Below, piece by piece: positions 3,056 through 24,670 of a stretch of DNA of 24,713 nucleotides. The first letter of the stretch is position 1; every line of letters starts with the position of its first letter. Source of the DNA: an uncultured Planctomycetaceae bacterium (GTDB lineage: Bacteria > Planctomycetota > Phycisphaerae > SM23-33); contig CAYNYF010000064.1 in assembly GCA_964401385.1 (NCBI GenBank), positions 1-24,713 of the forward strand, written 5' to 3'. The translations under genes and the position numbers were made by a program. The notes under the pieces are model-generated. The model was not told the origin of the DNA. It did not search any database and worked only from the letters and a program-made list of their open reading frames with translations.

Positions 3056-3147
3056 CTGGATATCAGCTTATCCGCCGCCACCGGCGCCCACAAACAAATT
3101 CTACCCGCCGGCAGCGGGGCTCGGGCCCGCCCCGCCGCGCGCCGGAC

Positions 3148-3291
3148 GCTGAGTCAGGCCGGCGCCTTCATGCGCCAGCGGGCCAGGACCTCCATCCGCA
3201 AGCGCAAGGGCGTCTCGCCGTCGGCGCCATGGAGGCGCCGGAGGGCTGGTACGCGCTGCCCATGCCGGAAGACAAGCCGGTGGAGCATTAG
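3148..3291 (+). repeat. R1: 5'-truncated copy (3148-3229) of the ~250-bp R repeat, fused to a C-terminal-like coding remnant ending with 'PEGWYALPMPEDKPVEH*'
   Basis: 'gctgagtcaggccggcgccttcatgcgccagcgggccaggacctccatccgcaagcgcaagggcgtctcgcc' aligns to R3 8053-8135 and R2 5130-5210. It encodes 'AFMRQRARTSIRKRKGVS'. The downstream piece ends at stop 3289-3291. Confidence 0.6.
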
Positions 3292-3321
3292 CGAATGCGT
3301 GAGACGCTCCACTCAAACCGC

Positions 3322-3780
3322 TCAACAGTCGCGAGGGTCCCATTCAGCATCACGATTGTGTTGACTGCATCGTTGTGGCTTTATCTTGTTCAGCGCTGGC
3401 TCAAGTTCGTCAAAGGCGGCGATCTCCTCGCACCTCGCGCAGCCTCGAGTCTTCCACCACAAGTAAAGCCGCGACGGGTCGATTTTGTTCTCCTGACACC
3501 ACGCTCGGATACGAGGCCCAGCGCAATGGCGCGATCGTCTGTGTTCGGAAAAGAACCCCAGCATATCCGCGATCAGATCACCAACCCGGATGCGGAACCG
3601 GTTCTGTTTCTTCCGCCCGCCGACGTAGAGGACATTCGGCAGTCCACCCACTTCCTCTTGTTTATATTCTTTGGTGAGTGTCAAGACATAGACCGTGCCA
3701 TTATCGGGAGGCAATTCCACAGCGTCACCAAGCGTGTGGGACAGGAGGTAATCGATTCGGTAAGGCCCATGCCACGGCAT
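3322..3780 (-). CDS. hypothetical 152-aa protein on a low-GC island; weak GIY-YIG-like signature and C-terminal Cys cluster (possible small nuclease)
   Basis: Minus-strand ORF with an internal ATG at 3780 preceded by 'CAGGAGAAACGAC' (AGGAGA SD 7 nt upstream). GC is about 50-52% against about 68% in the flanks. 'GTVYVLTLTKEYKQEEVGGLPNVLYVGGRKKQNRFRIRVGDLI' resembles GIY-(Xn)-YIG-R with a longer-than-usual spacer. Cys-rich tail (C-X8-C ... C-X2-C). The opposite-strand 281-aa ORF 3295..4140 has a poor, S/R/P-rich composition and was rejected. Confidence 0.45.
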   Translation of the reverse strand: MPWHGPYRIDYLLSHTLGDAVELPPDNGTVYVLTLTKEYKQEEVGGLPNVLYVGGRKKQNRFRIRVGDLIADMLGFFSEHRRSRHCAGPRIRAWCQENKIDPSRLYLWWKTRGCARCEEIAAFDELEPALNKIKPQRCSQHNRDAEWDPRDC

Positions 3781-4095
3781 GTCGTTTCTCCTGATTCGCG
3801 GCTCAGTCTCAGACATGAGCATATCTGGCAGACAAGCGGAGGCAAGCCAAAAGTGGCCAGCGCAAGAGGCATCCGGGGCAGCCGGGCGTTCGTCGAGTTG
3901 TTCGCCCTTCAACGGGCTCAGGACAAGGCCCACGACAAAAACCTGCCTGCGGGCAGGCAGGGCTCGTGCGCGCACTGCGGCGTGCGGACGATCTACGTCC
4001 CGGGCGGAGAGGCCGTCCCCCTGCGGGAAACATTCAAGGGCGTGAAGGTCTGGGTCCTGGACGCTTCCGGGCAGCCGGTCCCCGGCCGGATGGAC

Positions 4096-4140
4096 CTGCC
4101 GGAGGGCTGGTACGCCCTGCCGCTGGAGAGACAGGATTGA
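4096..4140 (+). repeat. second copy of the 'PEGWYALP'-encoding C-terminal remnant ('...GRMDLPEGWYALPLERQD*')
   Basis: 'ctgccggagggctggtacgccctgccg' matches 'gcgccggagggctggtacgcgctgccc' at 3234-3260. Both are followed within 10 codons by a stop. Confidence 0.4.
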
Positions 4141-4918: not shown

Positions 4919-5024
4919 GCAAATTTTACACAAACTCGGCGAATTCTCGTTGAGGACTTCCTCACACGGCATCCGACCCGGCCAGGCCTTCGTCGGGCTG
5001 TTCGGGCACGTCAGGCAGCTCGGG

Positions 5025-5277
5025 CACGGGCCCAGGGAGAGGATGAAGTCATGATCGAAATGCAGATGAAGGCGCTGTTTTTCGACTCGCCCCGCGTTCT
5101 GCGGGCGATGGACGCCGCCACGCGCCGAGAGATGTCCTGGGTCGGGGCGTTCATCCGCCAGCGGGCCAGGACTTCCACCCGCAAGCGCAAGGGCATCTTT
5201 CGTCCCGGCGGCCCGCCGCACTCCCGCGCGGGGCATCTGCGGCGGCTGAGGGGCACGGGCGGGCCTGGCGGCCGTGC
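5025..5277 (+). repeat. R2: full-length copy of the ~250-bp R repeat with SD+ATG and N-terminal coding-like sequence 'MIEMQMKALFFDSPRVLRAMDAATRREMSWVGAFIRQRARTSTRKRKG...'
   Basis: About 88-90% identical by eye to 7947-8207 (R3), with small indels that shift the downstream reading frame. 'gggagaggatgaagtcATG' with ATG at 5051. The track ORF 5051..5413 (120 aa) starts here. Confidence 0.7.
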
Positions 5278-5482
5278 CCGCATGCGGGAGGCTTGGAGCG
5301 CCACTTGGTCCTTCCGAACTATCACAGTAGTCCGCGTGGCCATCTGCTCAATCACCGGCTCTCCTGGCTGGATACTCAACAAAGCAGCTTCGTTCGCTGG
5401 CGCACTTTCCTGATTGACGTTAGTGTAGGCCTACCCTGAGCAGTGGGTATCAGGCAGCAGGCTCTGTTGCACTGTCGCTCAA

Positions 5483-6883: not shown

Positions 6884-7383
6884 TGTTCTATCTCCCGAAC
6901 CTGCATTTCAGAGGGCGAGTGCCAGTTGACAAGCGGCTTGCGCCGATCCTGAGTGGCCTTGGTTGTATCAATGAATGCCTGAAGGCTCCACAGCTCCGAC
7001 GTCCTCATGGCCGGCGTGGGCGCGGGCACGACGACGACAGACGGTTCCGGCGCGGGCAATTGCCGTTCGCGTGGAAACAGCCAGCGAGCAGACAGCCCCA
7101 CCAGCAGGCAGCCTGCCATGGCGATCGCCATGACAGCGGCCCGCCATCGTGATCGCTGACGCGGCCGTGCAGCCAGCGGCGGCAACTCCAGCCCCGCCGA
7201 CACGCTCCGCCTCTTCATCGCCTCGTGCGCCTGGGCAGCGGTCGTGAGGAGCTCCGACTGACGCGAGTTCCGTCCGGCATCCTCGGCCACAACGGCTGCT
7301 AGCAACGCCTCGACGTCTTCGGATAGCTGGCCTAGCGCCCGATCCAACATCAGTCGCTCAAGCAGGTGGGGCTCGACATTCAT
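6880..7383 (-). CDS. anti-sigma factor (single TM helix), 167 aa
   Basis: N-terminal 'MNVEPHLLERLMLDRALGQLSEDVEALLAAVVAED' is typical of an anti-sigma N-domain. TM helix 'WRAAVMAIAMAGCLLVGLSARWLF'. ATGA overlap with the upstream ECF sigma stop. Position is between the ECF sigma and a periplasmic protein. Confidence 0.7.
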   Translation of the reverse strand: MNVEPHLLERLMLDRALGQLSEDVEALLAAVVAEDAGRNSRQSELLTTAAQAHEAMKRRSVSAGLELPPLAARPRQRSRWRAAVMAIAMAGCLLVGLSARWLFPRERQLPAPEPSVVVVPAPTPAMRTSELWSLQAFIDTTKATQDRRKPLVNWHSPSEMQVREIEQ

Positions 7384-7859
7384 CTTTGATTCTCCTGTCC
7401 TCCCAACTGCTCCCGCAGTGTCCGGACGGCGTTGTGCAGGCGAGAGCGGACCGTCCCCAGCGGGATGCCCAAGACGAACGCGATTTCCTGGTACGATAGT
7501 TCGTGCTCGAGCCGCAGGTCCAGTGCTTCGCGCAACTCTGGCCCAAGCCGCCTAATGGCCCGAAGCATCATCTGAATTCGCTCATCCGGCTCCGAAGAAG
7601 CAGGAGTGGCCGGGAAGTCATCCTGGAGGGGAAGCGGGCGAGACCGTCGGTGCGACTTTGCCGCCAGGTGCCGCGCCACGGCATACAGCCACGCGCGCGG
7701 ACTCTGGAGGTGGCTCTGGCTGGCCTGCTCCACCAGGGCCCGAAATGTCTCCTGCACGATGTCCATCGCCCCATGCCGATCGCCCACCAGCCGGCGAACG
7801 TACGCTGCCAGTCGAGGTGCTTCCAATCTGTACAACGCCGCTATCTCAGTCGAGTCCAT
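7380..7859 (-). CDS. ECF (sigma-70 family group IV) RNA polymerase sigma factor
   Basis: Region 2 'DIVQETFRALVEQASQ...SPRAWLYAVARHLA' and region 4 'LRLEHELSYQEIAFVLGIPLGTVRSRLHNAVRTLREQL'. The start was trimmed to ATG 7859 (MDSTEIAALYRLEAPRLAAYVRRLVGD); 7895 is the alternative. Confidence 0.85.
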   Translation of the reverse strand: MDSTEIAALYRLEAPRLAAYVRRLVGDRHGAMDIVQETFRALVEQASQSHLQSPRAWLYAVARHLAAKSHRRSRPLPLQDDFPATPASSEPDERIQMMLRAIRRLGPELREALDLRLEHELSYQEIAFVLGIPLGTVRSRLHNAVRTLREQLGGQENQR

Positions 7860-7946
7860 CCTGGATCCCGGGGGTTTCCATAAGGATGTACCCATTCAGC
7901 CGGGAAAGTTCATCCTCCATCGGGATCTTTTTGAGTCGAGCCCGCG

Positions 7947-8207
7947 CGCGGGCTGCGGGAGGGGATGAAGTCATGATCGAAATGCAGATGAAGGCGCTGT
8001 TTTTCGACTCGGCCCGCGTTCTGGGGGCGATGGACGCCGCCACGCGCCCGGCGCTCAGGCAAGCCGGGGCGTTCATGCGCCAGCGGGCCAGGACCTCCAC
8101 CCGCAAGCGCAAGGGCGTCTCGCGGGCCCGCGAGGCGGCCCGCCGCACTCCCACGCGGGGCATCTGCGGCGGCTGAGGGGCACGGGGCGGCCCTGGCGGC
8201 CGTGGCC
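7947..8207 (+). repeat. R3: full-length copy of the R repeat; contains an apparently intact 68-aa ORF 7973..8179 ('MIEMQMKALFFDSARVLGAMDAATRPALRQAGAFMRQRARTSTRKRKGVSRAREAARRTPTRGICGG*') with SD 'GGGAGGGG'
   Basis: Direct repeat of 5025-5277 in the same orientation. Together with R2 it brackets the ECF sigma/anti-sigma/propeller module. Confidence 0.7.
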
Positions 8208-8329
8208 GGTTCTCAGGAGTGCTCCAATTCGCATGTAACCCGCTCGGCCGGACGGTCCACTCACCTTGCGCAGAAGCAGTGAGAAGAGGGCCGGCGATTG
8301 CCGGGCCCGGATGCGTGAAGGAGAAAGAC

Positions 8330-8620
8330 ATGAACGCCAGGAGACTGCGTGTGCCCAAGCCGGTGAAGTGGATTGTGACAGTGATTCTGGTCCTCGCCGC
8401 CGGGGCGCTGCTGGGCGGATGCCACAAACGCAAGGTCTTCGTCCTGCACGAACCCGGCCCGTATGTGGCCAGACACGGAAGGCGCCCCCGCGTCGTGCTG
8501 GTCGACCGCGGCAGGGACCGCCGACACAGGGAGGAGGCCCGCCATGAGCGTCGAGAACGCCCGGATAAGCGTCGTTCGGATCGCCGTCAGGACGATCGGC
8601 CCCGGCCGCGGCGACGCTGA
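8330..8620 (+). CDS. small lipoprotein (96 aa) with extremely Arg/Asp/Glu-rich C-terminal tail
   Basis: Strong SD 'GAAGGAGAAAGAC' before ATG 8330. Signal peptide plus lipobox 'WIVTVILVLAAGALLGGC'. Tail 'RGRDRRHREEARHERRERPDKRRSDRRQDDRPRPRRR'. The start was trimmed from the track ORF 8219..8620. Confidence 0.55.
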   Translation: MNARRLRVPKPVKWIVTVILVLAAGALLGGCHKRKVFVLHEPGPYVARHGRRPRVVLVDRGRDRRHREEARHERRERPDKRRSDRRQDDRPRPRRR

Positions 8621-8867
8621 GGCGGTGCCGGTGGCCGTCCGACAGTGCCCGCTGCCCGAGCGGTGGTTCGTGCTGGACCGGCTGCTATCCCGGCGGGGCG
8701 ATCCCCGTCGCCGACACCGTCGAGGCTGATCCGCCCGAACGCCGGCGCACTCGCCGGGTCAATGCAATTCCACGCATGTGACGCGACGGGTGTCCCACAA
8801 GCCGCGGCGCGTGGTACAATGCCCGCCGGACGGAGACGAAGGCAACTTCCGGGAAAGGGCAACCGCA

Positions 8868-9932
8868 ATGACCGGCGATGCAGAGGCTAAGTTCACGCGA
8901 GAGATCATCGACACCCACCCGCCGCAGGACCCCCACGTGAAAACGGCCGGCGACATCACCGGCAACGGCGCGGCCGACGTCGTCGCCGCCAGCAGCGCCG
9001 GCGGGCCGTTGGTGTGGTATGAGTCCCCGACGTGGGAGCGGCACGTGATCGCCGAGTCCGGCCGGTGGAGCTGCGACGCTAAGCTGCTCGACATGGACGG
9101 CGACGGCGACGCCGACCTGCTGATCTCCGAGTGGTACACGCACGACCGCCTGGAGTGGTACGAGAACCCCCGCCCGGCGGGGGACCCGCGCGTGGACCCG
9201 TGGAAGCGGCACGTCATGGGCAGCCCGCGGGCCCACGACATCCGACCCGGCGACGTCGACGGGGACGGGGCGATCGAGATCGTCACGCGCCAGCAGGGCC
9301 AGCCGGGAGACCGGATTGTCCTGTGGAAGCGGACGGCCGGCGATGCCTGGGTCCAGCGGGCGATTGCCTGCCCGGCCGGCGAGGGGTTGGCTGTGGCGGA
9401 CCTGACGGGCAACGGCCGGCTGGACGTTATCATCGGCGCCCGCTGGTATCAGGCCCCGGACGACGTGCTGGGCGGCGACTGGGGCGAGCACGTGCTGGCG
9501 GACTGGCCGGCCGACGCGGTGGTGGCCGTGGCCGACGTGAGCGGCAGCGGCCGCGGCGACGTGATACTGACCCGCTCCGAGGGGCCGCACCGGCTGGCGT
9601 GGTTCGAGCCGCCGGCCGACCCGATGGCCGGTAAGTGGGCCGAACACGTCGTCGACGACTCGGTGGACTTCGCCCACGGCCTGGCTTTGGGCGATCTGAC
9701 CGGCAGCGGCCGGCTGGACATCGTCGTGGCCGAGATGCACCAGTCGCCCCGCAGGCGCGTGATGGCCTACCTCAACCAGGGCGCGGGGCGGTCGTGGCGG
9801 CGGGTGATCCTCGCGGAAACGGGCAGTCACGACATCTGCCTTGCCGACGTGGACGGCGGCGGCCGACCGGCCGTCGTCGGGGCCAACTGGAGCGGGCCCT
9901 ATCAGCCTCTCGAGCTGTGGCGGCCGCGCTGA
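8868..9932 (+). CDS. FG-GAP/VCBS-repeat beta-propeller protein (ASPIC/UnbV-like)
   Basis: Repeated 'D-x-D/N-G-D-G-x-x-D' FG-GAP calcium-binding motifs (GDITGNGAADVV, LDMDGDGDADLL, GDVDGDGAIEIV, ADLTGNGRLDVI, ADVSGSGRGDVI, GDLTGSGRLDIV, ADVDGGGRPAVV). The start was trimmed to ATG 8868 (SD-like 'GGGAAAGGG'). There is no obvious signal peptide. Confidence 0.75.
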   Translation: MTGDAEAKFTREIIDTHPPQDPHVKTAGDITGNGAADVVAASSAGGPLVWYESPTWERHVIAESGRWSCDAKLLDMDGDGDADLLISEWYTHDRLEWYENPRPAGDPRVDPWKRHVMGSPRAHDIRPGDVDGDGAIEIVTRQQGQPGDRIVLWKRTAGDAWVQRAIACPAGEGLAVADLTGNGRLDVIIGARWYQAPDDVLGGDWGEHVLADWPADAVVAVADVSGSGRGDVILTRSEGPHRLAWFEPPADPMAGKWAEHVVDDSVDFAHGLALGDLTGSGRLDIVVAEMHQSPRRRVMAYLNQGAGRSWRRVILAETGSHDICLADVDGGGRPAVVGANWSGPYQPLELWRPR

Positions 9933-9933
9933 G
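9791..9933 (+). repeat. DR-A1: the last 143 bp of the FG-GAP gene, repeated at 14567-14709
   Basis: About 5 mismatches in 143 bp between the two copies, in direct orientation. Confidence 0.8.
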
Positions 9934-10278
9934 GCCGCCCCGCCATTGCTCATGCCGGGCGAGGGTGTACGCCGCCCACCGCTCACGCTGTCGGAGGTAG
10001 GGCTGTACCGACGCCCTGTCAACAACCCGCCTTGCCCGGCGCCTCTGACCAGGCCTCCCCGGCATGTAAATAGGACTCCATAAGCTGCAAATTGTGCTTG
10101 CAAAGACGGACAGGACGCAATAGAATCCTTCCTCTGTGGGACCGTTCAAGTCTACGTTGCTGTGGTAGTGTCCCAGGTTTTGATGCAATAAGCGCCTCGT
10201 CACGAGCAGTTTCAGCCGAGCTGTAGACAGGCGACCTGGACAGTGTGGGGCGCCTCTGATCTGGCAAGGAGAACGAAC

Positions 10279-11358
10279 ATGACGAAGCGGATCGGGCCCG
10301 CAGTGATTGAATTGCGCTTCGGCACGGACAGGGCGCCGAGGCAGCGCGAACGCCGAGGCTTCACGCTGATCGAACTTCTGGTGGTCGTCTCCATCATCGC
10401 CCTGCTGGTTTCGATGCTGCTGCCGACGCTCGGCAAGGCCAGGGACATGGCCAAGAAGGCGGGGTGTGCGTCACAGATGGGGGTGTACGGCCGGCAGATC
10501 GCCCTCTACCTGACCGAGTACAACTCCTACCCCCACTACGGCCCGTACGGAATCGGCGTCCCCGGCTTCTACTACGAGAACCTGGCGTTTCCCAAGTTCT
10601 ACGGGATCATGGAGACCTACGGCGTTACGGGCACGCACCGCACGAACTGGGGCGTTTACACCTACATCTGGGAAGCCGACGAGGTATGGGACGGGGCGCT
10701 GTGCCCGGGGATGGACGCCCTGGAGGTCTGGCAGGTCGCCGACCAGGCGTTCGATGCCGGACGGGCGTCCTACGACGGCAAGCCGTCGTTCCATAAGGGG
10801 GCGGTCGGCTACCAGTGGAACCCGACGCTCCGGGCAAGACACCCCAAATTCTCACCAGGGCGATGGCCCACTTGCCTGGAAGACTGGCCGGACGCCGGCG
10901 ACCACGACTATACCATGTGGATCGACTGGGTGATCAACCTGCCCGTCGGCAGCTTCGGCACGCAGGCGGTCAACCAGGAGGAGGTCAACCAGCCCCAGAC
11001 AGTCGCGGAGGCCTGGGATTCCTGGGATGTCAATGCCGCGCCCAACGTCAACATCGCCGGGAGCTACGCGGTGGAGGGCGTGGTGCCCGGCTGGCACGTC
11101 GGGCCGCAGTCGCGGGGCACGAACGGCTGGGCCCTGCTCAACGCCGCGCGGCACCCGAACGGACCGAACGTATTGTACGCCGACCATCACGTCGCCTCCG
11201 ACGTGAACAAGGCGATCGACCCCGGTCAGTTGGGGCCCTGCCCGTCCGGCAGTTGGAACGGCATTAAGGCGGTCAGTTGGAGCGACTACCACGAGGATTT
11301 CGGGACGATGTGGCACATCTGCCCGCAGCGGAAGTTCAAGGTTCCTCCAGAAGATTAG
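10279..11358 (+). CDS. DUF1559-type protein with prepilin-type N-terminal cleavage/methylation domain (type IV pilin-like N-terminus)
   Basis: 'RRGFTLIELLVVVSIIALLVSMLLPTLGKARDMAKKAGCASQMG' is the hallmark class-III signal / DUF1559 N-terminus, massively expanded in Planctomycetota-Verrucomicrobiota. Perfect SD 'AAGGAGAACGAAC' before ATG 10279. Confidence 0.85.
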   Translation: MTKRIGPAVIELRFGTDRAPRQRERRGFTLIELLVVVSIIALLVSMLLPTLGKARDMAKKAGCASQMGVYGRQIALYLTEYNSYPHYGPYGIGVPGFYYENLAFPKFYGIMETYGVTGTHRTNWGVYTYIWEADEVWDGALCPGMDALEVWQVADQAFDAGRASYDGKPSFHKGAVGYQWNPTLRARHPKFSPGRWPTCLEDWPDAGDHDYTMWIDWVINLPVGSFGTQAVNQEEVNQPQTVAEAWDSWDVNAAPNVNIAGSYAVEGVVPGWHVGPQSRGTNGWALLNAARHPNGPNVLYADHHVASDVNKAIDPGQLGPCPSGSWNGIKAVSWSDYHEDFGTMWHICPQRKFKVPPED

Positions 11359-11367
11359 GCGGCCACC

Positions 11368-11802
11368 ATGCAAAGCACACCCTCGGTGATCCTGGCCTGC
11401 ATCCTGACCGGGCTGATCGGCCTGGCCGGATGCAAGGACGCGGCCGAGAAGATCAGCTCGGCCGACCACCTCCTCTCCCGGCAGCACAAGGCCTGCGCCG
11501 ACGCCCTCGAGACCCTGCGCTCAGACCAGCCCAACTATAACCTGGTCCGAGCGGCCGGCGGGCGCTTCCGCAGGACCCTGCGCCGGGTCGAGAAGGACTA
11601 CACCGGCTCGAACAAGCACGAGGTCATCGCCAAGCTGAACCTGCTGGCCGATAGGTTCGACGCCGAGGTTGCCCCGAAGCTGACCATGGCCAGCCCGGAG
11701 GTCCGGTTGCAGACCGGCGTGACCCCCGAGGAACTTCGGGCCGCGTTCGAAAGCCTTCAGGCCGATTTTGAGACGCTAAAAGACCTGACGTCCGGCGGCT
11801 AA
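11368..11802 (+). CDS. small lipoprotein (144 aa), hypothetical
   Basis: Signal peptide plus lipobox 'ILACILTGLIGLAGC'. The start is 10 nt after the preceding stop, suggesting co-transcription. Confidence 0.65.
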   Translation: MQSTPSVILACILTGLIGLAGCKDAAEKISSADHLLSRQHKACADALETLRSDQPNYNLVRAAGGRFRRTLRRVEKDYTGSNKHEVIAKLNLLADRFDAEVAPKLTMASPEVRLQTGVTPEELRAAFESLQADFETLKDLTSGG

Positions 11803-11904
11803 ATTCGTATAACTCGCCTTGTAGTATAGGCGTGCGCGAACAGGGCGAGGCTGTTTGGTCTGTCCGGCCTGCAAGGGCGCAGGTGCAGAGCAAAAGAATG
11901 CTGG

Positions 11905-11922
11905 ACAGTTTAGCTAAACTGT
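11905..11922. promoter_or_regulatory. 18-bp perfect palindrome 'ACAGTTTAGCTAAACTGT' in the AT-rich promoter region upstream of the first PEP-CTERM gene
   Basis: Read directly from the sequence. It sits in a 280-bp stretch at about 48% GC that also contains a 'TATATT' -10-like element at 11936-11941. Confidence 0.5.
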
Positions 11923-12080
11923 GGTATTAGATAGGTATATTGGGTAGTTTACCTGCGGGCGGCGGGGTTGCATGTGCATGTCCGTGGGATTCTTTGTAGA
12001 GACACAATTCATACGAGCGAGGATACAGACTCTCGCCTTCGTGTGGTGAGAGCGGGAAATTTGATCTGGGAGGTAAGCTT

Positions 12081-13253
12081 ATGCCAATAACAACGAAGAC
12101 CTTGTGGACTGGGTTGGCGGCCGTGGTTGCGCTGGCTTGGCTGGCCGCTCCGGCCTCAGCCTTGGACTTGGGTTACGGCAAGTACATACCCACCAAGGAC
12201 GAGCCTACGAACGGGCAATGCTGGGCCGAGTTCGTCAACATGGGCGCCAACGAGTACGCCTTCATCAAGGCCGGCGTTGCTACCTGGCAGGCGGACTTCG
12301 ACCGGGACGCCATCGCGGCCGTCCTGGCGGCCTGGCCTCAGCATGAGGTGAGGCTCTACATCACGACTGCCGATAGCGATGATCCCTCTCTGGACGAGCG
12401 ATTCATGCCCTACACGTGGCAGAGCCAGAGCGTCTGGGGCGCCGAAGGCGACGGTTACTGGGACTTGTCCGGACAGCTCACGTGGAACGACTACGGCGAT
12501 CCGCTGAACTACAACAGCCACGCCTTCAACTGGACCGCAGGCACTCAGGCCATCTGCCAGTGGGGCATTTGCAGCCATCTCGGGACCGGCGTGGTGGACA
12601 CGGCCAACAGCCAGCATTGGCTGGATGCGGCCGGCAACCCGATCGGTAATCCCTGCTCCGCGTTCGGCGGGCCGCCCGCCGGCAGCGACCCGACGGGGTG
12701 GTGCCAGAGCAAGATGGAGTGCTGCTGGGGGGCGTTCGACTCAGCGGCCGACAGCAAGCTGCTCAACTCCGAGCCGATCATCGGCCTCGGGGACATGGTG
12801 CAGGCGTGGGTGAAGCTCGACCAGGAGCTGGTGGAGGATATCACCGGCACCGGGCGGGCGAACGTCTTTGCCCTGGGCGTTGCCCTGGCCGACGAGAACA
12901 ACGACATCTGGACCAATTGGAACAACCTCTGGATGTGCACCAAGGAGAACGAGGGCAACGAGCCGTACATCCGGCTGATGTGGCCCGGCGACGCCAACTT
13001 CGACGGCTGCGCCAACGGCGCCGACTACACCCTCTGGGCTGACAACTATCAGCTAAACCCCGGCGGGCAGGGCTGGGAAGAGGCCGATTTCAACGGCGAT
13101 ATGAACACCGACGGCGGGGACTACACCCTCTGGGCTGACCACTACGTAGGCGGAACCGGCGGTCCCGGCTGCACGGGCACGGGGCAGATCCCCGAGCCGG
13201 TGACGCTGGGGTTGCTCAGCCTTGGGGCTGTGGCGCTGCTGCGTCGGAAGTAG
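12081..13253 (+). CDS. PEP-CTERM sorting-domain secreted protein with two dockerin-like Ca-binding repeats
   Basis: Strong SD 'GGGAGGTAAGCTT' before ATG. Signal peptide 'LAAVVALAWLAAPASA'. C-terminal 'IPEPVTLGLLSLGAVALLRRK'. Repeats 'GDANFDGCANGADYTLWADNY' and 'ADFNGDMNTDGGDYTLWADHY'. Confidence 0.85.
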   Translation: MPITTKTLWTGLAAVVALAWLAAPASALDLGYGKYIPTKDEPTNGQCWAEFVNMGANEYAFIKAGVATWQADFDRDAIAAVLAAWPQHEVRLYITTADSDDPSLDERFMPYTWQSQSVWGAEGDGYWDLSGQLTWNDYGDPLNYNSHAFNWTAGTQAICQWGICSHLGTGVVDTANSQHWLDAAGNPIGNPCSAFGGPPAGSDPTGWCQSKMECCWGAFDSAADSKLLNSEPIIGLGDMVQAWVKLDQELVEDITGTGRANVFALGVALADENNDIWTNWNNLWMCTKENEGNEPYIRLMWPGDANFDGCANGADYTLWADNYQLNPGGQGWEEADFNGDMNTDGGDYTLWADHYVGGTGGPGCTGTGQIPEPVTLGLLSLGAVALLRRK

Positions 13254-13575
13254 CATTCGAAATCGAGGACGAATGGCCCAAGCGGCCTGGCGCGGATCCT
13301 CATCTCGCCCGGTCGCCTGGGCCAAGAACGAGGCCGGGAGGGTTGACCGGGGAACCGGGCGGCGCCCGGACGCAGGGAGCAGAACGGATGCGTTGAGCTT
13401 CGCTTCCGGTGATCCGGACCGCCGGGTTCTTGCAGCCCGGCGTGGCCCTTACGGAGAGCAAATCAGAAAGGAGGTGTGTGGAAGAATGCCGGTGAGCGAT
13501 TGTCCATATTGTGAGGACACTGAGAGACGGAATCCCCGCTACAGTGGGGCATTCCAATGGAAGGAGGGAGTATCG

Positions 13576-14478
13576 ATGAAGACACTTTTGGTCATTCTAA
13601 CAGCGCTGGCTGTATGCGCCGTCCCGGTGGTGGGGGAGCCCTTCCTCTGCCAACGGGACAACGCCAACGACCAGGCCGGCGGCCCGCCGCCGCCGGGAGA
13701 GTGGCACAGCAACGAGGGTGCCAACAACGTTGCCCGCATCAAGGCCTCTGACCACCAGTGGTACGGCGACTGGGATATGGGTGCGATCCTGGAGTACATG
13801 GACTGCAATCCGTGCCCACAGGGCATGTACTACGAGGCCCGGCTGTACGTCGTCCCCGACGCGGGCGAGGGCGGTTGGGTGCCCGGGGCGATGAACCCGG
13901 TGCAGATCGCCGCGGTGTGGAGCGAGAACGACTGGGTCGAGGGTGACGCTGGTCGGACGTATTCGAACTACAACTGGACCAACCCGACCGAGAACTTCGC
14001 GGCCACGGAGGCGTACGCCGGGGACACCGAAGACCCCAACAACCCGGGGAATTCGGACCCCGTCCGTGCCGTCCCCTGGGTCCACCCGACCCGAGGCGTA
14101 TGCACGATGATGGGGACGTTCCTGGACTATAGCGACAAGAGCGGCACCCTTCCGGATCCGCTGACGCCGTGGCAGCCGTGGTTGGGAGTGTGCAACTCGG
14201 TCAGGAACTCCCAGGACTTGATGATCGACCCGGACCAGACGGGCGTGTACCACAGCGTGGTCCTGGACGCCGCGCTGTTCCAGGACATGCTGACCAACCC
14301 GAACAACCGCGGGTTGGCGCTGTATAACCTGCCGCCGGACAGCTTTGCCAACCGCAACATCCGGACGCGGGAATATGTCGACAGCGAGCCGTACCTGGAC
14401 GTCGTCTGTGTTCCCGAGCCGGCAACGTTGCTGCTGCTGGTCTCCGGCGGCCTGCTGATGATTCGCAGGAAGCGCTAG
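13576..14478 (+). CDS. PEP-CTERM sorting-domain secreted protein (300 aa)
   Basis: SD 'GGAAGGAGGGAG' before ATG 13576. Signal peptide 'MKTLLVILTALAVCAVPVVG'. C-terminal 'VPEPATLLLLVSGGLLMIRRKR'. The track ORF 13222..14478 was trimmed. Confidence 0.85.
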   Translation: MKTLLVILTALAVCAVPVVGEPFLCQRDNANDQAGGPPPPGEWHSNEGANNVARIKASDHQWYGDWDMGAILEYMDCNPCPQGMYYEARLYVVPDAGEGGWVPGAMNPVQIAAVWSENDWVEGDAGRTYSNYNWTNPTENFAATEAYAGDTEDPNNPGNSDPVRAVPWVHPTRGVCTMMGTFLDYSDKSGTLPDPLTPWQPWLGVCNSVRNSQDLMIDPDQTGVYHSVVLDAALFQDMLTNPNNRGLALYNLPPDSFANRNIRTREYVDSEPYLDVVCVPEPATLLLLVSGGLLMIRRKR

Positions 14479-14524
14479 GGCCTCCGGGCCAAGTGACTGG
14501 CGAAAGAGGCGACTGACATTCCTC

Positions 14525-14557
14525 GGCCGGGGCCTTCCCCGGCCGGGGCCTCTTTCT
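14525..14557 (+). terminator. candidate intrinsic terminator after the PEP-CTERM genes (8-bp GC stem 'GGCCGGGG-cctt-CCCCGGCC' followed by 'TCTTTCT')
   Basis: Hairpin read directly from the sequence; the T-tract is short and interrupted. Confidence 0.4.
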
Positions 14558-14566
14558 GCGCCGCCC

Positions 14567-14709
14567 GCCGTAGCGGCGGGTGATCCTCGCGGAAACGGGC
14601 AGCCACGACATCTGCCTTGCCGACGTGGACGGCGGCGGCCGACCGGCCGTCGCCGGGGCCAACTGGAGCGGACCCTATCAGCCTCTCGAGCTGTGGCGGC
14701 CGCGCTGAG
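14567..14709 (+). repeat. DR-A2: second copy of the FG-GAP gene 3'-end repeat
   Basis: Aligns to 9791-9933 at about 96% identity; encodes '...RVILAETGSHDICLADVDGGGRPAVAGANWSGPYQPLELWRPR*' with no gene body upstream. Confidence 0.8.
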
Positions 14710-14725
14710 CCGAACGGCCGGCCGG

Positions 14726-15655
14726 CTACGGCCAGTCCACCCTGCGTTCGGTCAGGAAGCGGATGACATCGTCCCGGCCGGGAATGCCCGCCCGGCCGCC
14801 CATCTGCCTGCACTTCATGGCCGCCGCCGCGGAGGCGAACTGGAGGTTCTTCACGAACGGAAATCCCTCCACCAGCCCGTAGCAGAAGGCCCCGTGGAAG
14901 GTGTCGCCCGCGCCGGTGGTGTCCACCACCTTCACCGGGAACGCGGGCATCTCCGCCAGGTCCTCGCCGTCGAGATACACCAGTCCCCGCTCGCCCAGGG
15001 TGATGACGACGCGCTCCGGCCCCATCGCGCGGACGGCCGTGCAGGCGGCGAGGTAATCATCGCTGCCGGCCAATCGCCGGGCGCAGCCCTCGGAGATGAT
15101 GGCGAAGCCCACGTAGGCCAGCAGGGCCGCGGTCCGCTCGCCGACGCCGCCCAGGTCCGCGACGACCGGCACGCCGAGCCGCCGGGCCTGCCGGGCGGCC
15201 CGCAATGCGCTGGCCGGATACGTCCCGTCCACCAGCAGGCAGCCGGTGCCCTTCAGCGCCTCGGGCGAGCCGATCGGCTCCTTCGGCTCGGAGAAGCCCG
15301 CCCCGTAGGGGAAGTGCCGCTGCCCGGTGGGGCTGTCGACGCAGACCACGACCATGGGCCCCCGGCCGCCGGGCATCACGACGACATGGCGCGTGTCCAC
15401 CTTCTCGCGCCGCAGCCCGTCCAGGATCATCCGTCCCATCCAGTCGTCGCCGACGGCGGCCCACAGCTCCGCCCGCCCGCCGAGCCGCGCCACCGTCACC
15501 ATGGCCGTGCCCACCATGCCGCCGCCCTGCACCTGGAAGTCGAGGATCTTGTTGTCCACCAGCGGGGCCTGCACGTCCTGCCACAGGATGAGCTGGTCCA
15601 GGACGGCCAGCCCGACGCCGACGACCTTCTTCCCGCTGTCGGAGCCCGCGTTCAT
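14726..15655 (-). CDS. PfkB-family carbohydrate kinase (ribokinase/tagatose-6-phosphate kinase-like), 309 aa
   Basis: 'VDTTGAGDTFHGAFCYGL' is the PfkB signature 2 (DTxGAGD). N-terminal 'VVGVGLAVLDQL'. The track ORF was trimmed to ATG 15655, which overlaps the aldolase stop (ATGA). Confidence 0.85.
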   Translation of the reverse strand: MNAGSDSGKKVVGVGLAVLDQLILWQDVQAPLVDNKILDFQVQGGGMVGTAMVTVARLGGRAELWAAVGDDWMGRMILDGLRREKVDTRHVVVMPGGRGPMVVVCVDSPTGQRHFPYGAGFSEPKEPIGSPEALKGTGCLLVDGTYPASALRAARQARRLGVPVVADLGGVGERTAALLAYVGFAIISEGCARRLAGSDDYLAACTAVRAMGPERVVITLGERGLVYLDGEDLAEMPAFPVKVVDTTGAGDTFHGAFCYGLVEGFPFVKNLQFASAAAAMKCRQMGGRAGIPGRDDVIRFLTERRVDWP

Positions 15656-16500
15656 ATCAGCCCGCCTGCCCCCAGCTCGCCGAGGTAGCGGGTGACGGTG
15701 GCGGCGACCGCCTCTCTGCCGGCCTTCAGCGCCGCCGACCAGCCGCACCGCCCGCCGGCATCGGTAACGGCCGCGCACAGGGCGTCGCTGAAGTCCTTGT
15801 GGAGCTGCGTGGCGATGTTGAGCTTCCGCACGCCCAGTTCGGCCGATCTGCGAATGTCGGCCGCGGGCAGGCCCGTGCCCCCGTGAAGGGCCAGCGGCAC
15901 GCCCGCGCGCGAGGCGATCGCCTCGATCAGGTTGAACCGCAGCCGCGGCGGCTTCTTGTAGAACCCGTGCGCGTTCCCCACGGCCGGGGCGAGGATGTCC
16001 ACGTGCGTCTCCCGGACAAAGCGGGCGGCCTCGTCGGGGTCGGCCAGCTCCGCCGGCTCGCCGCCGGCCGACTGCTCCTGGCTGAAGCTGCCCAGCTCGC
16101 CCTCGATGGTCGCCCCGTGGGCGTGCGCGAGGGCGGCCATCTCGCGGGTTCTGCGGACGTTCTCGTCGAACTCGCACGCCGAGGCGTCGAACATCACGCT
16201 CTTGAAGCCGAGCTTGAGGGCGGTCTCGATCTCCCGTTCCTCCCGGCCGTGGTCGAGGTGGAGAATCACCGGCACCGACGACCGCGCCGCGAAGGACCGC
16301 GCCAGGTCCGCGCAGGCCTCCAGCCCGATGTAGCCGGCCCCCGGCGCCCACACCAGCAGCAGCGCCGGCGCCCGCGCCGCCTCACAGGCCGTCAGCACCC
16401 CCAGCAGGAAGTCGCTCTGCCCGCCGCCGATGTCGAAGCCGGGAAGGCAGAGCTTCCTCGCGTTCAGAAGGGGCATCACCTCGTTGAGGCTCACCAGCAT
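15652..16500 (-). CDS. class II ketose-bisphosphate aldolase (fructose/tagatose-1,6-bisphosphate aldolase, GatY/KbaY-like), 282 aa
   Basis: 'PVILHLDHG' and 'LALHGGTG' Zn-ligand motifs of class II aldolases. The length matches the GatY/KbaY subfamily. It forms an operon with the PfkB kinase. Confidence 0.85.
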   Translation of the reverse strand: MLVSLNEVMPLLNARKLCLPGFDIGGGQSDFLLGVLTACEAARAPALLLVWAPGAGYIGLEACADLARSFAARSSVPVILHLDHGREEREIETALKLGFKSVMFDASACEFDENVRRTREMAALAHAHGATIEGELGSFSQEQSAGGEPAELADPDEAARFVRETHVDILAPAVGNAHGFYKKPPRLRFNLIEAIASRAGVPLALHGGTGLPAADIRRSAELGVRKLNIATQLHKDFSDALCAAVTDAGGRCGWSAALKAGREAVAATVTRYLGELGAGGLI

Positions 16501-16881: not shown

Positions 16882-17331
16882 CTAGCGCAGCTTGAGCCGT
16901 CGCACGAGCTGAATCCCGTTCTTGTCGAGCACCCTTCGCTGTGGTGAGTTCGGCAGTATGTTTATTCCTCCGGCACTCACCCACACAAACCTGCCTCGCT
17001 GTACTTCGTTCAGAGGTTGGCCCGTCATCCAGCTCTCGAGCCACCCCTTCTTCCTGAGCACGAGCTGGATCTCGCTGACCTTCGCCCTGTGGAATTCAAC
17101 GAAAAACGCTTTGTCATTCTTGTTGCTTATGCGATAGCCGATTGCATAGTCCCATCGGTTGGCGTTCGGGTAGGTCGCTCGCAAGGCAGCGTCTATGTTG
17201 ACGCTGCCTGCGATTCGGCGCGGGTCACGTGCATTGATGCTGGACCTATGGGCCTTGCTCAGCGAGCGGAGCCCTACACGAAAATGTGTGGCAATCTCGA
17301 GTGTGCCTTGGACAGCGGTCTTGAACTTCAT
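16882..17331 (-). CDS. hypothetical 150-aa protein, second gene of the ATPase operon (candidate effector/partner)
   Basis: Trimmed to ATG 17331, preceded by 'GAGGGACACGA' (GAGGG SD). That ATG overlaps the ATPase stop (ATGA). No cysteines and no recognisable catalytic motif. Lower GC (about 54%). Confidence 0.55.
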   Translation of the reverse strand: MKFKTAVQGTLEIATHFRVGLRSLSKAHRSSINARDPRRIAGSVNIDAALRATYPNANRWDYAIGYRISNKNDKAFFVEFHRAKVSEIQLVLRKKGWLESWMTGQPLNEVQRGRFVWVSAGGINILPNSPQRRVLDKNGIQLVRRLKLR

Positions 17332-18524
17332 TCGTGTCCCTCGGGACTGCCAGCTGCGATCTCGCCAATCACCTGGCCCACTCGACCGCTGAACTCCGTC
17401 AAGCCACCCCATCCTGCCTCTGCGGGATTGTCTGCCCCCGGATCAAGCCCGGATATGTCCCGGGCCACATGGCCTCTAGAGCCCCGTAAGCGTTCAAAGT
17501 AATAGACGCGTTTTTCCTTCCGGATAGCCGCTCGGGCGATTTTCCTCATCTCAGGGCTGTGTCTGCTAAGACCGAACATGTCAATGACCTTGTCGGGCAG
17601 AGCGCCGTAGCCCTGAATGGTTCGCAGCCCCCAGACGACATCAAGGACGTGGGGAGAGTGCGTGGACAATACAACGCGGTATCCTCGCCACAGCAACTCG
17701 AGGATGACAAGCATTACGGCCGAAATTGCTGCGGGGTGGAGGCCCATCTCAGGTTCCTCAACGATCACCCATTCGGTATCACCTCGCCGAGCGGTCTTCG
17801 CCGAAGGACAGAGCCAGTAGAGACCAAGCAGCAGCGGAACGAACTCGCGCTGCCCCGCCGACCACACCATGAAAGGAAGCTTGTCGCCTTCGCCCTGCAA
17901 AACAAGACGCCGCTGAACGCCTCCCATCCGGTCAAGCTTCAAGGAGAATCCGTGGAAGACAGCGGCATCGAGGGCCTTGCGAAGCTCGGCCTTGAGCCTG
18001 CCTGCCTGCGGAAACACGCTTGCGGTCTTGCCTCCTCCTAGGCCGGCCTGCATTTGCATACGGAGCTTCTCACTGAAGCTTGGTACAACATATGGGTCTC
18101 CTGCGGCGAAATCGGTAAACGGCCTCGGCCACCCCATGCTCAGCGACAACACCCGCTGGGCGGGAATGTACAACATCTTCTCCATGCGCTTGTGACGTTT
18201 GGCTTTCGCGAAGTTCTTCAACCTAGTGGGAAGATCAACATGCTCTTCTTCCCAGACAAGGACGCTGGCGCCGCTTCCTGATTCCGTCCACACGCCCCGC
18301 ATGCCCTCGCCCAAGTACAGGTTTAGGAAGAGGTTCAAATTGCCCTCCCACTCATACCCGTACCTCTTCAGATCGTCGGTGATCTTTGGGCCGTCAACCA
18401 TCAGTTTCAGGAACTGAAGGAAGATGCTCTTCCCACTGGCCTGGGGGCCGACAAGCACGGTCAGGTCGCCGAACTCAACATTGGCGTCCTTGAGCGGTCC
18501 AACGTTCTGCAAGGCGAGCTTCAT
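17328..18524 (-). CDS. ABC/SMC-like AAA ATPase (AAA_21/AAA_15-type, OLD/AbiEii-like ATPase head without nuclease domain), 398 aa
   Basis: N-terminal 'LTVLVGPQASGKSIFLQFL' is a Walker A at residues about 22-34. Walker B/D-loop 'WVIVEEPEMGLHP'. H-loop 'VLSTHSP'. A roughly 200-aa insertion separates Walker A and B, as in SMC-like/AAA_21 ATPases. SD 'CGGAG' 9 nt before ATG 18524. Confidence 0.8.
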   Translation of the reverse strand: MKLALQNVGPLKDANVEFGDLTVLVGPQASGKSIFLQFLKLMVDGPKITDDLKRYGYEWEGNLNLFLNLYLGEGMRGVWTESGSGASVLVWEEEHVDLPTRLKNFAKAKRHKRMEKMLYIPAQRVLSLSMGWPRPFTDFAAGDPYVVPSFSEKLRMQMQAGLGGGKTASVFPQAGRLKAELRKALDAAVFHGFSLKLDRMGGVQRRLVLQGEGDKLPFMVWSAGQREFVPLLLGLYWLCPSAKTARRGDTEWVIVEEPEMGLHPAAISAVMLVILELLWRGYRVVLSTHSPHVLDVVWGLRTIQGYGALPDKVIDMFGLSRHSPEMRKIARAAIRKEKRVYYFERLRGSRGHVARDISGLDPGADNPAEAGWGGLTEFSGRVGQVIGEIAAGSPEGHE

Positions 18525-19555: not shown

Positions 19556-19686
19556 TTCTATCCTCACTCCTGCGGCGTCCCTGCCTGATCGCGCCGCCCA
19601 TCGGCGCAGAGCAAAGATACTACTATCTTGGCGGCAATGCTCAAGTGTCTGCTTGCCTGACCTATCCGGAGTTTGCCGAACCGGGC

Positions 19687-20232
19687 TGGGAGCTGGCAAC
19701 TGCGCGGGTGGCGAGAGCCATGGAATGAGACATCGCCGAGACAATTCCGGTGCGTGCGAGCACGCACCCTACGCCCCGCCCCAGCCCCATCGGGGCGTCT
19801 TGACCGGATGGGCAGGCAAGGCGCCCCTACGGGGCTCCGGCCGGGCTAACCCGGCCACCTCCCAGGGCTCGCGCCCTGGGCTAAGAAAGGCGCCCCTGCC
19901 GGGGCTGCCCGTGGAACCGGCCACACGTCAGTCTGCTTGCGGGTTGCACCGGGCGGGGCGGGAGCCGGCAACTGCGCGGGTGGCGAGAGCCATGGAATGA
20001 GACATCGCCGAGACAATTCCGGTGCGTGCGAGCACGCACCCTACGCCCGGCCCCAGCCCCATCGGGGCGTCTTGACCGGATGGGCAGCCAAGGCGCCCCT
20101 ACGGGGCTCCAGGGCGGCGAAGCCCTCCACCTCCCCGGGCTGGCGCCCTGGGCTAAGAAAGGCGCCCCTGCGGGAGCTACCCATGGAACTGGCCACACGT
20201 CAGTCTGCTTGCGGCTTGCACCGGGCGGGCCC
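19687..20232. repeat. tandem direct duplication, period ~273 bp, 2.0 copies (plus a short partial third start at about 19644), extremely GC-hairpin-rich
   Basis: Unit 1 'gggagctggcaactgcgcgggtggcgagagccatggaatgagacatcgccgagacaattccggtgcgtgcgagcacgcaccctacgcc...' recurs from 19961. Each unit contains the 8-bp-stem hairpin 'GGTGCGTG-cgag-CACGCACC' and several GCCCC/GGGGC stems. No ORF is conserved between units. Confidence 0.8.
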
Positions 20233-20345
20233 GGCGGGCATGATACCCCGGCCGGGACTTTTCGACGAGCGACGAGTCGACGAGCGACGTGGGAGGCAGG
20301 CATTCCCGCAACGTAGCCGCGGCGCGAATGCAGCACGGGCAGACC

Positions 20346-21485
20346 ATGAACGGAAAGCAGCGCGTCAGAGCGGCCATCGCCCGCGAGGCGCCGGACAAGG
20401 TGCCGCTGGGCTTCTACGCGGTCGACCACGACACCATCGAGCGCGTCCTCGGGCGGAAGACCTACGTCCGCAACAAGGTCGAGACCGAAATCGCCCTGTG
20501 GCAGGGGCGGCGCGACGAGCTGGCCGAGAGCCTCAAGAAGGACACCGTCGAGTTCTACCGCAAGATCGACTGCGCGGACGTCATCCTTCCCAAGGAGGCG
20601 CACGTCCTGCCGCCGGCCGACTACGAGCCCATCGGCGCCAAGCGGCTCGATACGGACAAGTGGCAGACCGGCGACGGCCGGGTCTTCCAGGCCGTCCCGG
20701 AGGTCAACGAGATCCGCTGCATGCACGATCCCGCGGCCGGGGGGCGCCAGTTCACCGTGGCCGACTTCGCCGACGAGTCGGCCCCGCCGCCGCCGGACGC
20801 GAGCTGCTACGAGGTCGTGGACTACCTGCTGGGAGAGCTGGGCGACGAGCGGTACATCCCCAGCCTCATCCCGACGGTGGGGCTGGTGCTGCTGGGCGGC
20901 ATGGAGAACGGGCTGATGCTGTACGCCCTGGCCCCGGAGGTGGTGCGCGCGGCCGCGAGGCAGCAGGTGAAGCGCCAGAACGCCCTGGACGAGCACAACA
21001 TCCGCCCCGGCTCGGCGGGCGTGATGTTCGACAACGACATGGCCGGGACCCGCGGCCCGCTGATCTCGCCGGCGATGTTCCGCGAAATGGCCTTTCCCTA
21101 TTTCAAGGAACGCGCCCGCCACGCCAAGGGCTTCCACGAGCAGCTCATCCTGCACAACTGCGGCAACAACATCCCGCTGATGGAGATGTTCATCGAGGCC
21201 GGCGTGGACTGCTATCAGTCCCTCCAGACCACGGCCGGCATGGAGGTCGGGCTTCTCAAGGAGATGTTCGGCCAGCGGATGTGCTTCTGGGGCGGCGTGG
21301 GGCTGGAGGTGCTGATTGCGGGCACGCCCGCCGACGTCCGCCGGGCGGTCCGCACGGCCATGGAGCGCGGCGCCGGCGGCGGGGGGTTCATCCTCGGGCC
21401 CAGCCACTCCATCGCCATGAACACCAAGTACGAGAACTTCATGGCCATGCTGGATGAGTTCGTTAAGCTGCGGGAGAAGTTCTGA
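20346..21485 (+). CDS. uroporphyrinogen decarboxylase (URO-D) family protein (MtaA/CmuA-like methyltransferase/decarboxylase fold)
   Basis: N-terminal 'MNGKQRVRAAIAREAPDKVPLGFYAVDHD' is the typical URO-D-family N-terminus (PDRVPV-like). 380 aa, TIM-barrel-like composition. The start was chosen at 20346 (alternatives 20289/20328); no clear SD. Confidence 0.75.
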   Translation: MNGKQRVRAAIAREAPDKVPLGFYAVDHDTIERVLGRKTYVRNKVETEIALWQGRRDELAESLKKDTVEFYRKIDCADVILPKEAHVLPPADYEPIGAKRLDTDKWQTGDGRVFQAVPEVNEIRCMHDPAAGGRQFTVADFADESAPPPPDASCYEVVDYLLGELGDERYIPSLIPTVGLVLLGGMENGLMLYALAPEVVRAAARQQVKRQNALDEHNIRPGSAGVMFDNDMAGTRGPLISPAMFREMAFPYFKERARHAKGFHEQLILHNCGNNIPLMEMFIEAGVDCYQSLQTTAGMEVGLLKEMFGQRMCFWGGVGLEVLIAGTPADVRRAVRTAMERGAGGGGFILGPSHSIAMNTKYENFMAMLDEFVKLREKF

Positions 21486-24549: not shown

Positions 24550-24670
24550 CAGACAAAGGGGTCAGCAGACAAAGGGGTCAGGTACCTTTTCTGGCTGAGA
24601 CAAAGGGGTCAGGTACCTTTTACGGCTGATTCTCAGCTGAGAAAGGGGTTACGGCGAGAAAGGGGTCAGG
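24550..24670. repeat. five iterations of a ~14-16-nt motif 'AGA(C)AAAGGGGT(C/T)A(G/C)G' within 120 bp, two of them extended as 'AAAGGGGTCAGGTACCTTTT' hairpins
   Basis: Motif copies start at 24550, 24566, 24597, 24637 and 24656. The array directly follows the stop of the large secreted-protein gene, and the window ends 43 bp later. Confidence 0.5.

Follow-up and report, generated by a model that had tools for sequence, protein, structure and literature searches.

Prophage e14 of Escherichia coli resides in the isocitrate dehydrogenase gene icd, where an orphan 163-bp icd 3′ end, termed icdC, is found at the far side of the prophage (PMC6379469, PMC13626634). In cis-mobilizable elements (CIMEs) the genes for integration and transfer are lost while the flanking attachment sites attL and attR are kept (PMC5704250). 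A different pattern is displayed by hot spots of horizontal gene transfer (HGT), many of which contain no mobile elements and are flanked by core genes that undergo frequent homologous recombination (Oliveira et al. 2017, PMC5635113). The locus described here lies on contig CAYNYF010000064.1 (24,713 nt, analyzed over its full length and referred to as the window) of an uncultured Planctomycetaceae bacterium of the Phycisphaerae. In this window, the 3′ end of a gene encoding an FG-GAP/VCBS β-propeller protein is present twice, and the two copies bracket a cluster of four genes for surface or secreted proteins. A first-pass annotation of the sequence had taken this duplication for the signature of an integrative island and had proposed either an old integration scar or a site of recombination-mediated cluster exchange. 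As outlined below, the locus represents an ordinary type of genomic-island footprint and not a new kind of element.

The direct repeat pair

A repeat search of the window revealed a direct repeat of 141 nt that occurs in two copies with 97% identity, located at positions 9793–9933 (copy A) and 14569–14709 (copy B). Copy A is composed of the last 46 codons of the FG-GAP gene, the stop codon (9930–9932) and one additional nucleotide, and its start falls at codon position 2. Copy B, in agreement with the first-pass annotation, has no gene body attached and is situated close behind a terminator-like hairpin. It starts 10 nt past the T-tail of this hairpin and ends 17 nt from the stop codon of a convergent gene for a PfkB-family sugar kinase.

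In a pairwise alignment the copies are identical at 137 of 141 positions. The four mismatches (copy A/copy B, numbered according to copy A) are found at 9796 (G/A), 9827 (T/C), 9877 (T/C) and 9896 (G/A), and the longest run of identity between the copies comprises at most 49 bases. The exchange at 9796 turns TGG, the second codon of the repeat, into an in-frame TAG in copy B (14571–14573). At the left edge the homology starts abruptly (...CGT(G/A)GCGGCGGG), and at the right edge it extends one base past the TGA stop codon. The repeat of 143 bp with five mismatches given in the first-pass annotation is the same match, drawn two bases further to the left.

A 74-nt core of the repeat is found twice in the window, compared to no occurrence in 100 dinucleotide-preserving shuffles. 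The first-pass annotation had pointed out that a generic repeat, scattered over many unrelated loci, would speak against an island. Such a repeat can be dismissed, since the core is duplicated in the window only, occurs exactly once in each of nine fetched loci (contigs of five distinct relatives plus duplicates of the L003 type, see below) and is absent from viral contigs.

As copy A supplies the 3′ end together with the stop codon, the FG-GAP gene is intact. Its product (P0001, 354 residues) has an exact match in the protein collection and is equal in length to its orthologues. The nearest named relative, with 82% identity, is found in Phycisphaerae bacterium SM23_33, and scans with the protein identified two loci in genomes, one of them only 25% identical, and four in metagenomes.

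Related loci (denoted L001, L002 and so on) were used to assess the history of the two copies. Copy A matches the single copy of L003 at 132 and copy B at 129 of 141 positions. About nine differences from L003 are common to both copies, and it can thus be concluded that copies A and B are each other's closest relatives. Judged from these shared states, the duplication probably drew on the sequence of its own lineage, or else the copies undergo homogenization. Three of the four mismatches can be polarized by means of L001, L002 and L003. In all three, including the premature stop codon, copy A shows the ancestral and copy B the derived state, which suggests that copy B is a decaying orphan and that copy A is held by selection. 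At the first two mismatch sites, the copy B sequence of a further contig, L011, retains the ancestral bases, G and T, respectively, while its copy A carries A66, C74, T105 and C110.

An empty site and an independent copy of the insertion

Outside the strain cluster, the FG-GAP protein has its closest homologue in P0002 of L001 (82% amino acid identity). For relatives devoid of the cluster the first-pass annotation had predicted that the FG-GAP gene would be followed directly by the PfkB/aldolase operon, and precisely this arrangement is found in L001. Here the FG-GAP gene is followed by 15 nt, the convergent PfkB gene and then the aldolase gene, and the cluster is missing. BLASTN aligned positions 2311–3425 of L001 to window positions 8819–9933, and positions 3279–5196 of L001 without a break to window positions 14563–16482. 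The two alignments overlap on L001, so that one stretch of L001 matches both repeat copies. Moreover, copy B is succeeded by the spacer and the PfkB C-terminus exactly as the single copy of L001 is. Given this empty arrangement, the window carries an insertion of 4,776 bp, with copy B joined to the ancestral downstream flank. The comparison identifies the 4,776-bp unit, which consists of the cargo and one repeat copy, as a probable genomic islet that entered the FG-GAP gene at its 3′ end. The reading of the duplicated gene end as a trace of an integrative island is thereby supported.

A truncated second FG-GAP paralogue was considered as a source of copy B and is unlikely. Synteny upstream of copy A, through the gene body, and downstream of copy B matches that of the single-copy relatives, and the repeat starts at codon position 2.

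By means of cluster look-ups, the proteins of all four cargo genes were traced to a single ENA contig of 4,768 nt, L011. An exact look-up of cargo protein P0140 returned no contig, and the cargo was reached through cluster members. L011 corresponds to window positions 9856–14623 with 99.5% identity and without gaps. Its ends fall within copy A and copy B, respectively, so that both novel junctions are included. The last 55 nt of L011 equal the first 55 nt of the repeat, similar to a loop edge in a de Bruijn graph with k=55. Hence, L011 supports the junctions seen in the window, but it fits an integrated unit as well as a circle next to an empty site.

L011 and the window differ at 23 positions, four of which fall into the 78 nt of copy A, two into the 55 nt of copy B and 17 into the 4,633 nt of cargo. 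With six substitutions in 133 nt, the repeat parts are about tenfold more densely substituted than the cargo. This excess places a recombination breakpoint at or near the cargo border and points to allele exchange or gene conversion that might have ended at the borders of the cargo. The last cargo gene was also detected, at 95% identity, on L018, which derives from a third sample.

The cargo and its coding capacity

The GC content of the cargo (0.64) is lower than that of the flanks (0.71–0.73). The same tendency is seen in the GC content at third codon positions (GC3), which amounts to 0.87–0.88 in three cargo genes and 0.80 in a longer open reading frame (ORF) containing the fourth, compared to 0.92–0.955 in the FG-GAP, PfkB and aldolase genes. 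The cargo extends from a promoter-like site to a terminator, and truncated genes are found at neither end (Table 1).

The four genes had been described in the first-pass annotation as encoding a DUF1559 pilin-like protein, a lipoprotein and two PEP-CTERM proteins, and this description holds for the most part. The pseudopilin-like protein, an exact copy of which is present in the protein collection, matches only the families N_methyl and TIGR02532. DUF1559 was not detected in it even at E≤5, which leaves this label unconfirmed. The second gene encodes the predicted lipoprotein, for which no family match was obtained in Pfam or NCBIfam and which is recognized by its signal peptide and lipobox. 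Both PEP-CTERM assignments exceed the cut-off of NCBIfam TIGR02595 and stay below that of Pfam. For PEP-CTERM protein 1, identity to the nearest non-self homologue is as low as 51%, indicating that the cargo is rare. In L008, homologues of PEP-CTERM proteins 1 and 2 adjoin each other. The intergenic stretch at 11.8–12.1 kb is indeed AT-richer than its surroundings, as had been noted, but its interpretation as a promoter island was not confirmed, the only site returned by a sigma-70 scan being located upstream of the pseudopilin-like gene.

Table 1. Features of the islet and its flanks in the window.
Feature	Position	Strand	Evidence or remark
FG-GAP/VCBS β-propeller gene, 354 aa, no signal peptide	8868..9932	+	Pfam FG-GAP_3 7e-25
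Repeat copy A (R_A), FG-GAP 3′ end	9793..9933	+	Repeat search, alignment
Cargo segment, missing from the L001 empty site	9934..14568	+	GC, GC3, BLASTN, L011
Sigma-70-like promoter TTGCAA-17-TAGAAT, upstream of the pilin-like gene	10098..10126	+	Consensus match only
Prepilin-type N-terminal methylation (pseudopilin-like) protein, 359 aa	10279..11358	+	Pfam N_methyl 7e-8; NCBIfam TIGR02532 above cut-off
Predicted lipoprotein, 144 aa, signal peptide, lipobox LAGC	11368..11802	+	Sequence reading
AT-richer intergenic stretch upstream of the first PEP-CTERM gene	11803..12080	.	GC about 0.52
PEP-CTERM protein 1, 390 aa, two dockerin-like repeats	12081..13253	+	TIGR02595 17.9 bits (cut-off 16); weak Dockerin_1
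PEP-CTERM protein 2, 300 aa	13576..14478	+	TIGR02595 21.6 bits; exact protein in collection
Terminator-like hairpin, 12 pairs (11 G-C), 14521-14548, and T-rich tail	14521..14558	+	Marks the cargo end, 10 nt ahead of copy B
Repeat copy B (R_B), orphan FG-GAP 3′ end	14569..14709	+	In-frame TAG; contiguous with ancestral spacer and PfkB
Rest of the 17-nt ancestral spacer (14709-14725) that separates the convergent stops	14710..14725	.	15 nt in L001, outgroup to L003; L003 islet sits here
PfkB-family sugar kinase gene, 309 aa, right flank	14726..15655	-	Pfam PfkB 9e-40
Class II fructose-bisphosphate aldolase family gene, operon with PfkB	15652..16500	-	Pfam F_bP_aldolase 6e-69

Neither an integrase or other recombinase nor a transposase or reverse transcriptase was found in the 24.7-kb contig with Pfam and NCBIfam. 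The first-pass annotation had seen no integrase, and in line with this the cargo ORFs and the rest of the contig contain no recombinase domain. No inverted repeat pairs the two ends of the cargo, and neither tRNA genes nor Rfam families, which would be candidate integration targets, were found in the window. Insertion of a transposon or insertion sequence was rejected, because transposase and terminal inverted repeats are missing and the duplication measures 141 nt instead of being short.

Other insertions between the FG-GAP and PfkB genes

L003 is more closely related to the window than L001 (FG-GAP protein more than 90% identical, flanks 91–97% identical at the nucleotide level). It contains one repeat copy and a different islet of 2.2 kb, which is located within the short spacer and leaves both spacer halves recognizable on its two sides. 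The genes of this islet encode a weakly MazG-like protein and a protein with weak similarity to radical-SAM/pVip-like proteins. Since the sequence leading from the repeat through the spacer to PfkB is split in L003 by another islet, the common ancestor was empty at this position and the two insertions are independent. Thus, different islets were acquired in the lineages of L003 and the window, at sites no more than about 155 nt apart. L016 and L019 are of the L003 type, with the MazG-like and radical-SAM genes. In L017, the PfkB gene of which is 94% identical at the nucleotide level, yet another sequence starts 5 nt beyond the PfkB stop codon. For the more distant loci L002, L006, L007 and L014, homology to the window stops within about 8 nt of the FG-GAP stop codon.

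With its differing content in L001, L003, L017 and the window, the stretch separating the convergent FG-GAP and PfkB genes qualifies as a hot spot of insertion. The second interpretation given in the first-pass annotation, an exchange site, is also borne out by the other islet next to a single repeat copy in L003 and by the other sequence in L017. Its concern that relatives might share the layout with two copies, which would imply an ancient fixed duplication, does not apply, as this layout is seen only in the window and the near-identical L011.

Several details of the L003 type were recorded. Its islet (7856–10033) encodes a MazG-like protein of 119 residues (weak match) and a radical-SAM protein of 381 residues (weak match to viperin, 8.5e-4), and the two genes may form a defence pair. 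A 61-nt repeat (positions 7981–8041 and 5317–5377, 88% identity) is present in both L003-specific inserts. In addition, a 40-nt hairpin-forming motif (GGCATGCCGCTATTGCGGAT...) is found both beside the PfkB stop codon of L017 (1256–1298) and where the L003 islet begins on the left (7859–7898), and may represent a small element, repeated or terminator-like, tied to islet borders. At their left ends, the cargo of the window and the islet of L003 agree at about 18 of 22 nt, a similarity below BLAST significance which was treated as chance.

A second repeat pair in the window

A further direct repeat pair, R′, of about 265 nt is found at positions 5017–5280 and 7939–8208 (273 aligned columns, 87% identity), with a third, partial copy at 3132–3261. 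In an architecture equal to that of the FG-GAP repeat, the pair brackets an operon of extracytoplasmic function (ECF) sigma factor, anti-sigma-like and PD40 type, with the sigma factor gene at 7380–7895 (minus strand), a gene for 167 residues and a PD40-like gene for 466 residues. In L003, the two halves of R′ are separated by 1.85 kb that contain other genes. A reciprocal-chimera test on R′, which could have revealed a diverged copy brought in by an element, was negative, both copies being 80–81% identical to L003 and 86–87% identical to each other. Copies A and B show this pattern as well, and one process may have made both repeat pairs of the window.

Origin of the islet

The arrangement of the locus is best, albeit tentatively, explained by a Campbell-type single crossover, which is regarded as the most likely origin without commanding even odds. 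According to this model, a circular intermediate would have carried, besides the cargo, a copy of the terminal ~141 nt of FG-GAP. A single crossover between this copy and the chromosomal one would give the order gene body, copy A, cargo, copy B, spacer and PfkB that is observed in the window. The FG-GAP gene would remain intact in the product and the orphan copy would be free to decay, as exemplified by the change from TGG to TAG. As the islet encodes no recombinase, the crossover could have been catalyzed by RecA on the basis of the 141-nt homology or by an integrase acting in trans, as expected for a non-autonomous or decayed element of the CIME kind. We infer both the circular intermediate and the crossover enzyme from the final arrangement. 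In their present state the repeats allow loss of the islet or its renewed movement by recombination between the copies.

Several observations weigh against this model. The contig is free of mobility genes, no autonomous relative occupies the site and no second duplication of the repeat was detected among the relatives. An integrase-bearing element at the FG-GAP 3′ end was found in none of the few relatives retrievable, for which sampling is thin, and the viral contigs contained nothing related. A diverged, element-borne gene end comparable to that of e14 is missing, copies A and B being closest to each other. The copies of R′ show the same relationship, being more similar to one another than to L003, and duplication in situ would fit this equally well. 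Moreover, it is not accounted for how the first circle acquired its repeat.

Duplication in situ could have resulted from illegitimate insertion, in which case the 141 nt would represent a long target-site duplication that arose in the insertion event itself, with neither a circle nor attachment sites involved. Either a nascent strand left its template after the FG-GAP stop codon, copied the cargo elsewhere and re-entered 141 nt upstream, or DNA was captured between staggered breaks. A model for template-switching events of the former kind is provided by microhomology-mediated break-induced replication (MMBIR; PMC2621351). An origin of this type would explain why all lineage-specific states are common to the two copies, with differences confined to four sites, three of which are derived in the orphan, and it requires neither a recombinase nor terminal inverted repeats. 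The behaviour of the ~265-nt repeats of the second cassette agrees with it. On the other hand, a tidy cargo reaching from promoter to terminator, without gene fragments at its ends, is unlikely to arise from two arbitrary breakpoints, and no clear microhomology could be scored without the donor sequence. Furthermore, target duplications of this length are poorly documented for the capture of DNA by bacteria. Illegitimate insertion is rated as the main alternative, possible but doubtful. The duplication might also have arisen secondarily by homologous-recombination shuffling at the hot spot, for instance by a crossover within the cargo of two alleles that contained it at sites 141 nt apart, or by unequal exchange between strains with different islets. 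The variable content of the interval in L001, L003, L017 and the window, the breakpoint at or near the cargo border revealed by L011 and the frequent recombination of core genes flanking hot spots that lack mobile elements (PMC5635113) are all in favour of such shuffling. However, the cargo would have to occur within the FG-GAP gene in some allele, and no such allele was observed. Ordinary replacement by double crossover, moreover, leaves no duplication. Shuffling as the source of the repeat is thus unlikely.

The arrangement could further be an assembly effect, if an empty-site chromosome and a separate circle of cargo and repeat, or the sequences of two strains, had been threaded into one path. 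The ends of L011, which resemble a k=55 loop edge within the repeat, would be in accordance with this. Yet the copies in the window differ at four sites with no more than 49 identical bases in a row, so that they are not collapsed, and both junctions are reproduced in an independent sample. In addition, a 4.8-kb circle without replication genes would hardly persist at chromosomal coverage, and an assembly effect is accordingly considered highly improbable. The geometry of the locus, with a repeat of about 140 nt at a gene end and an orphan copy a few kilobases away, superficially recalls a diversity-generating retroelement (DGR), in which copy A would be the variable and copy B the template repeat. 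A DGR was rejected, its probability being negligible: the window contains no reverse transcriptase, only two of the four mismatches coincide with adenines of copy B, 18 of its 20 adenines being unchanged, and an empty site exists in L001.

Apart from the origin of the present insertion, the repeats might be regarded as portable homology arms instead of a passive scar. Recombinase-less islets of Phycisphaerae that carry 140–270 nt of their target would then move from strain to strain as circles, excised by RecA and re-integrated by Campbell-type crossover. Such a general route is speculative and distinctly unlikely. If it existed, the ECF sigma cassette bracketed by R′ (5017–5280/7939–8208) would be another instance, and the tenfold excess of substitutions in the repeat parts relative to L011 would mark re-integration into a different host allele.

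Other islets and repeats in the contig

Additional features outside the FG-GAP/PfkB interval were noted. A segment of 905 nt with low GC content (0.61; positions 3143–4047) is absent from L003, where 55 nt are found instead. It lies between 39-nt repeats (3222–3260 and 4083–4121, 82% identity), which derive from fragments of a small repeated ORF-like sequence (MIEMQMKALFFDS...PEGWYALP), and contains an ORF of 217 codons on the minus strand without a family match. On the other side of the islet, two overlapping genes on the minus strand (16882–18524) match the PADLOC candidate defence pair PDC-M56B (1.5e-42) and PDC-M56A (3.3e-144; AAA_21/AAA_15 ATPase), the ATPase gene having a GC3 of 0.69. 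As synteny with L003 ends at position 16521, the PDC-M56 pair constitutes another islet beside the PfkB/aldolase operon. A 272-nt tandem duplication (19682–20225, two copies, 92% identity) is located upstream of a URO-D/MtaA-like methyltransferase gene (20289–21485). Finally, a 31-nt tandem repeat (24567–24628, two copies, 94% identity) is found close to the right end of the contig, at a distance of about 85 nt.

Comparison with known systems

The islet provides a clean, dated example of the gain of a surface-protein cluster in an uncultured lineage of the Phycisphaerae. The empty site, the occupied site and a site with other content are all available, in a group for which mobile elements and routes of gene transfer are almost unknown. 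The FG-GAP/PfkB interval should therefore be useful for strain-level comparisons. If the second repeat-flanked cassette shares the mechanism, the locus would also be a pointer to a possible recombinase-independent route.

With HGT hot spots the interval shares identical flanking genes and differing content in relatives. It is empty in one relative, occupied by unrelated islets in others and free of any recognizable mobility gene. Turnover of such sites by double crossover leaves no duplication, and in contrast to them the 141-nt repeat of the window requires an extra event.

The islet resembles a CIME in that integration and transfer genes are absent while flanking repeats are kept. However, no remnant of genes from an integrative and conjugative element (ICE) or an integrative and mobilizable element (IME) is found in it, no related autonomous element is known for the site, and the repeats are only candidate attachment sites. 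They are also far longer than typical att cores.

The insertions of e14 (and phage 21) in icd differ from the islet in their gene content and in the history of the gene ends. Whereas e14 carries phage genes, encodes its own integrase and excises upon SOS induction, the cargo of the window consists of four genes for surface or secreted proteins and is not accompanied by an adjacent integrase or any other recombinase. Likewise, the icd copy borne by e14 marks a separate origin, whereas copies A and B differ at only four sites and are each other's closest relatives. In their layout the two systems correspond closely. Both show duplicated gene-end repeats and an empty site in relatives, and in both the insert lies in the 3′ end of a protein-coding gene that is completed by a copy of about 140–165 nt, including the stop codon, in front of the insert. 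At the far side, an orphan, non-functional 3′ end adjoins the ancestral downstream flank in the window just as it does in icd.

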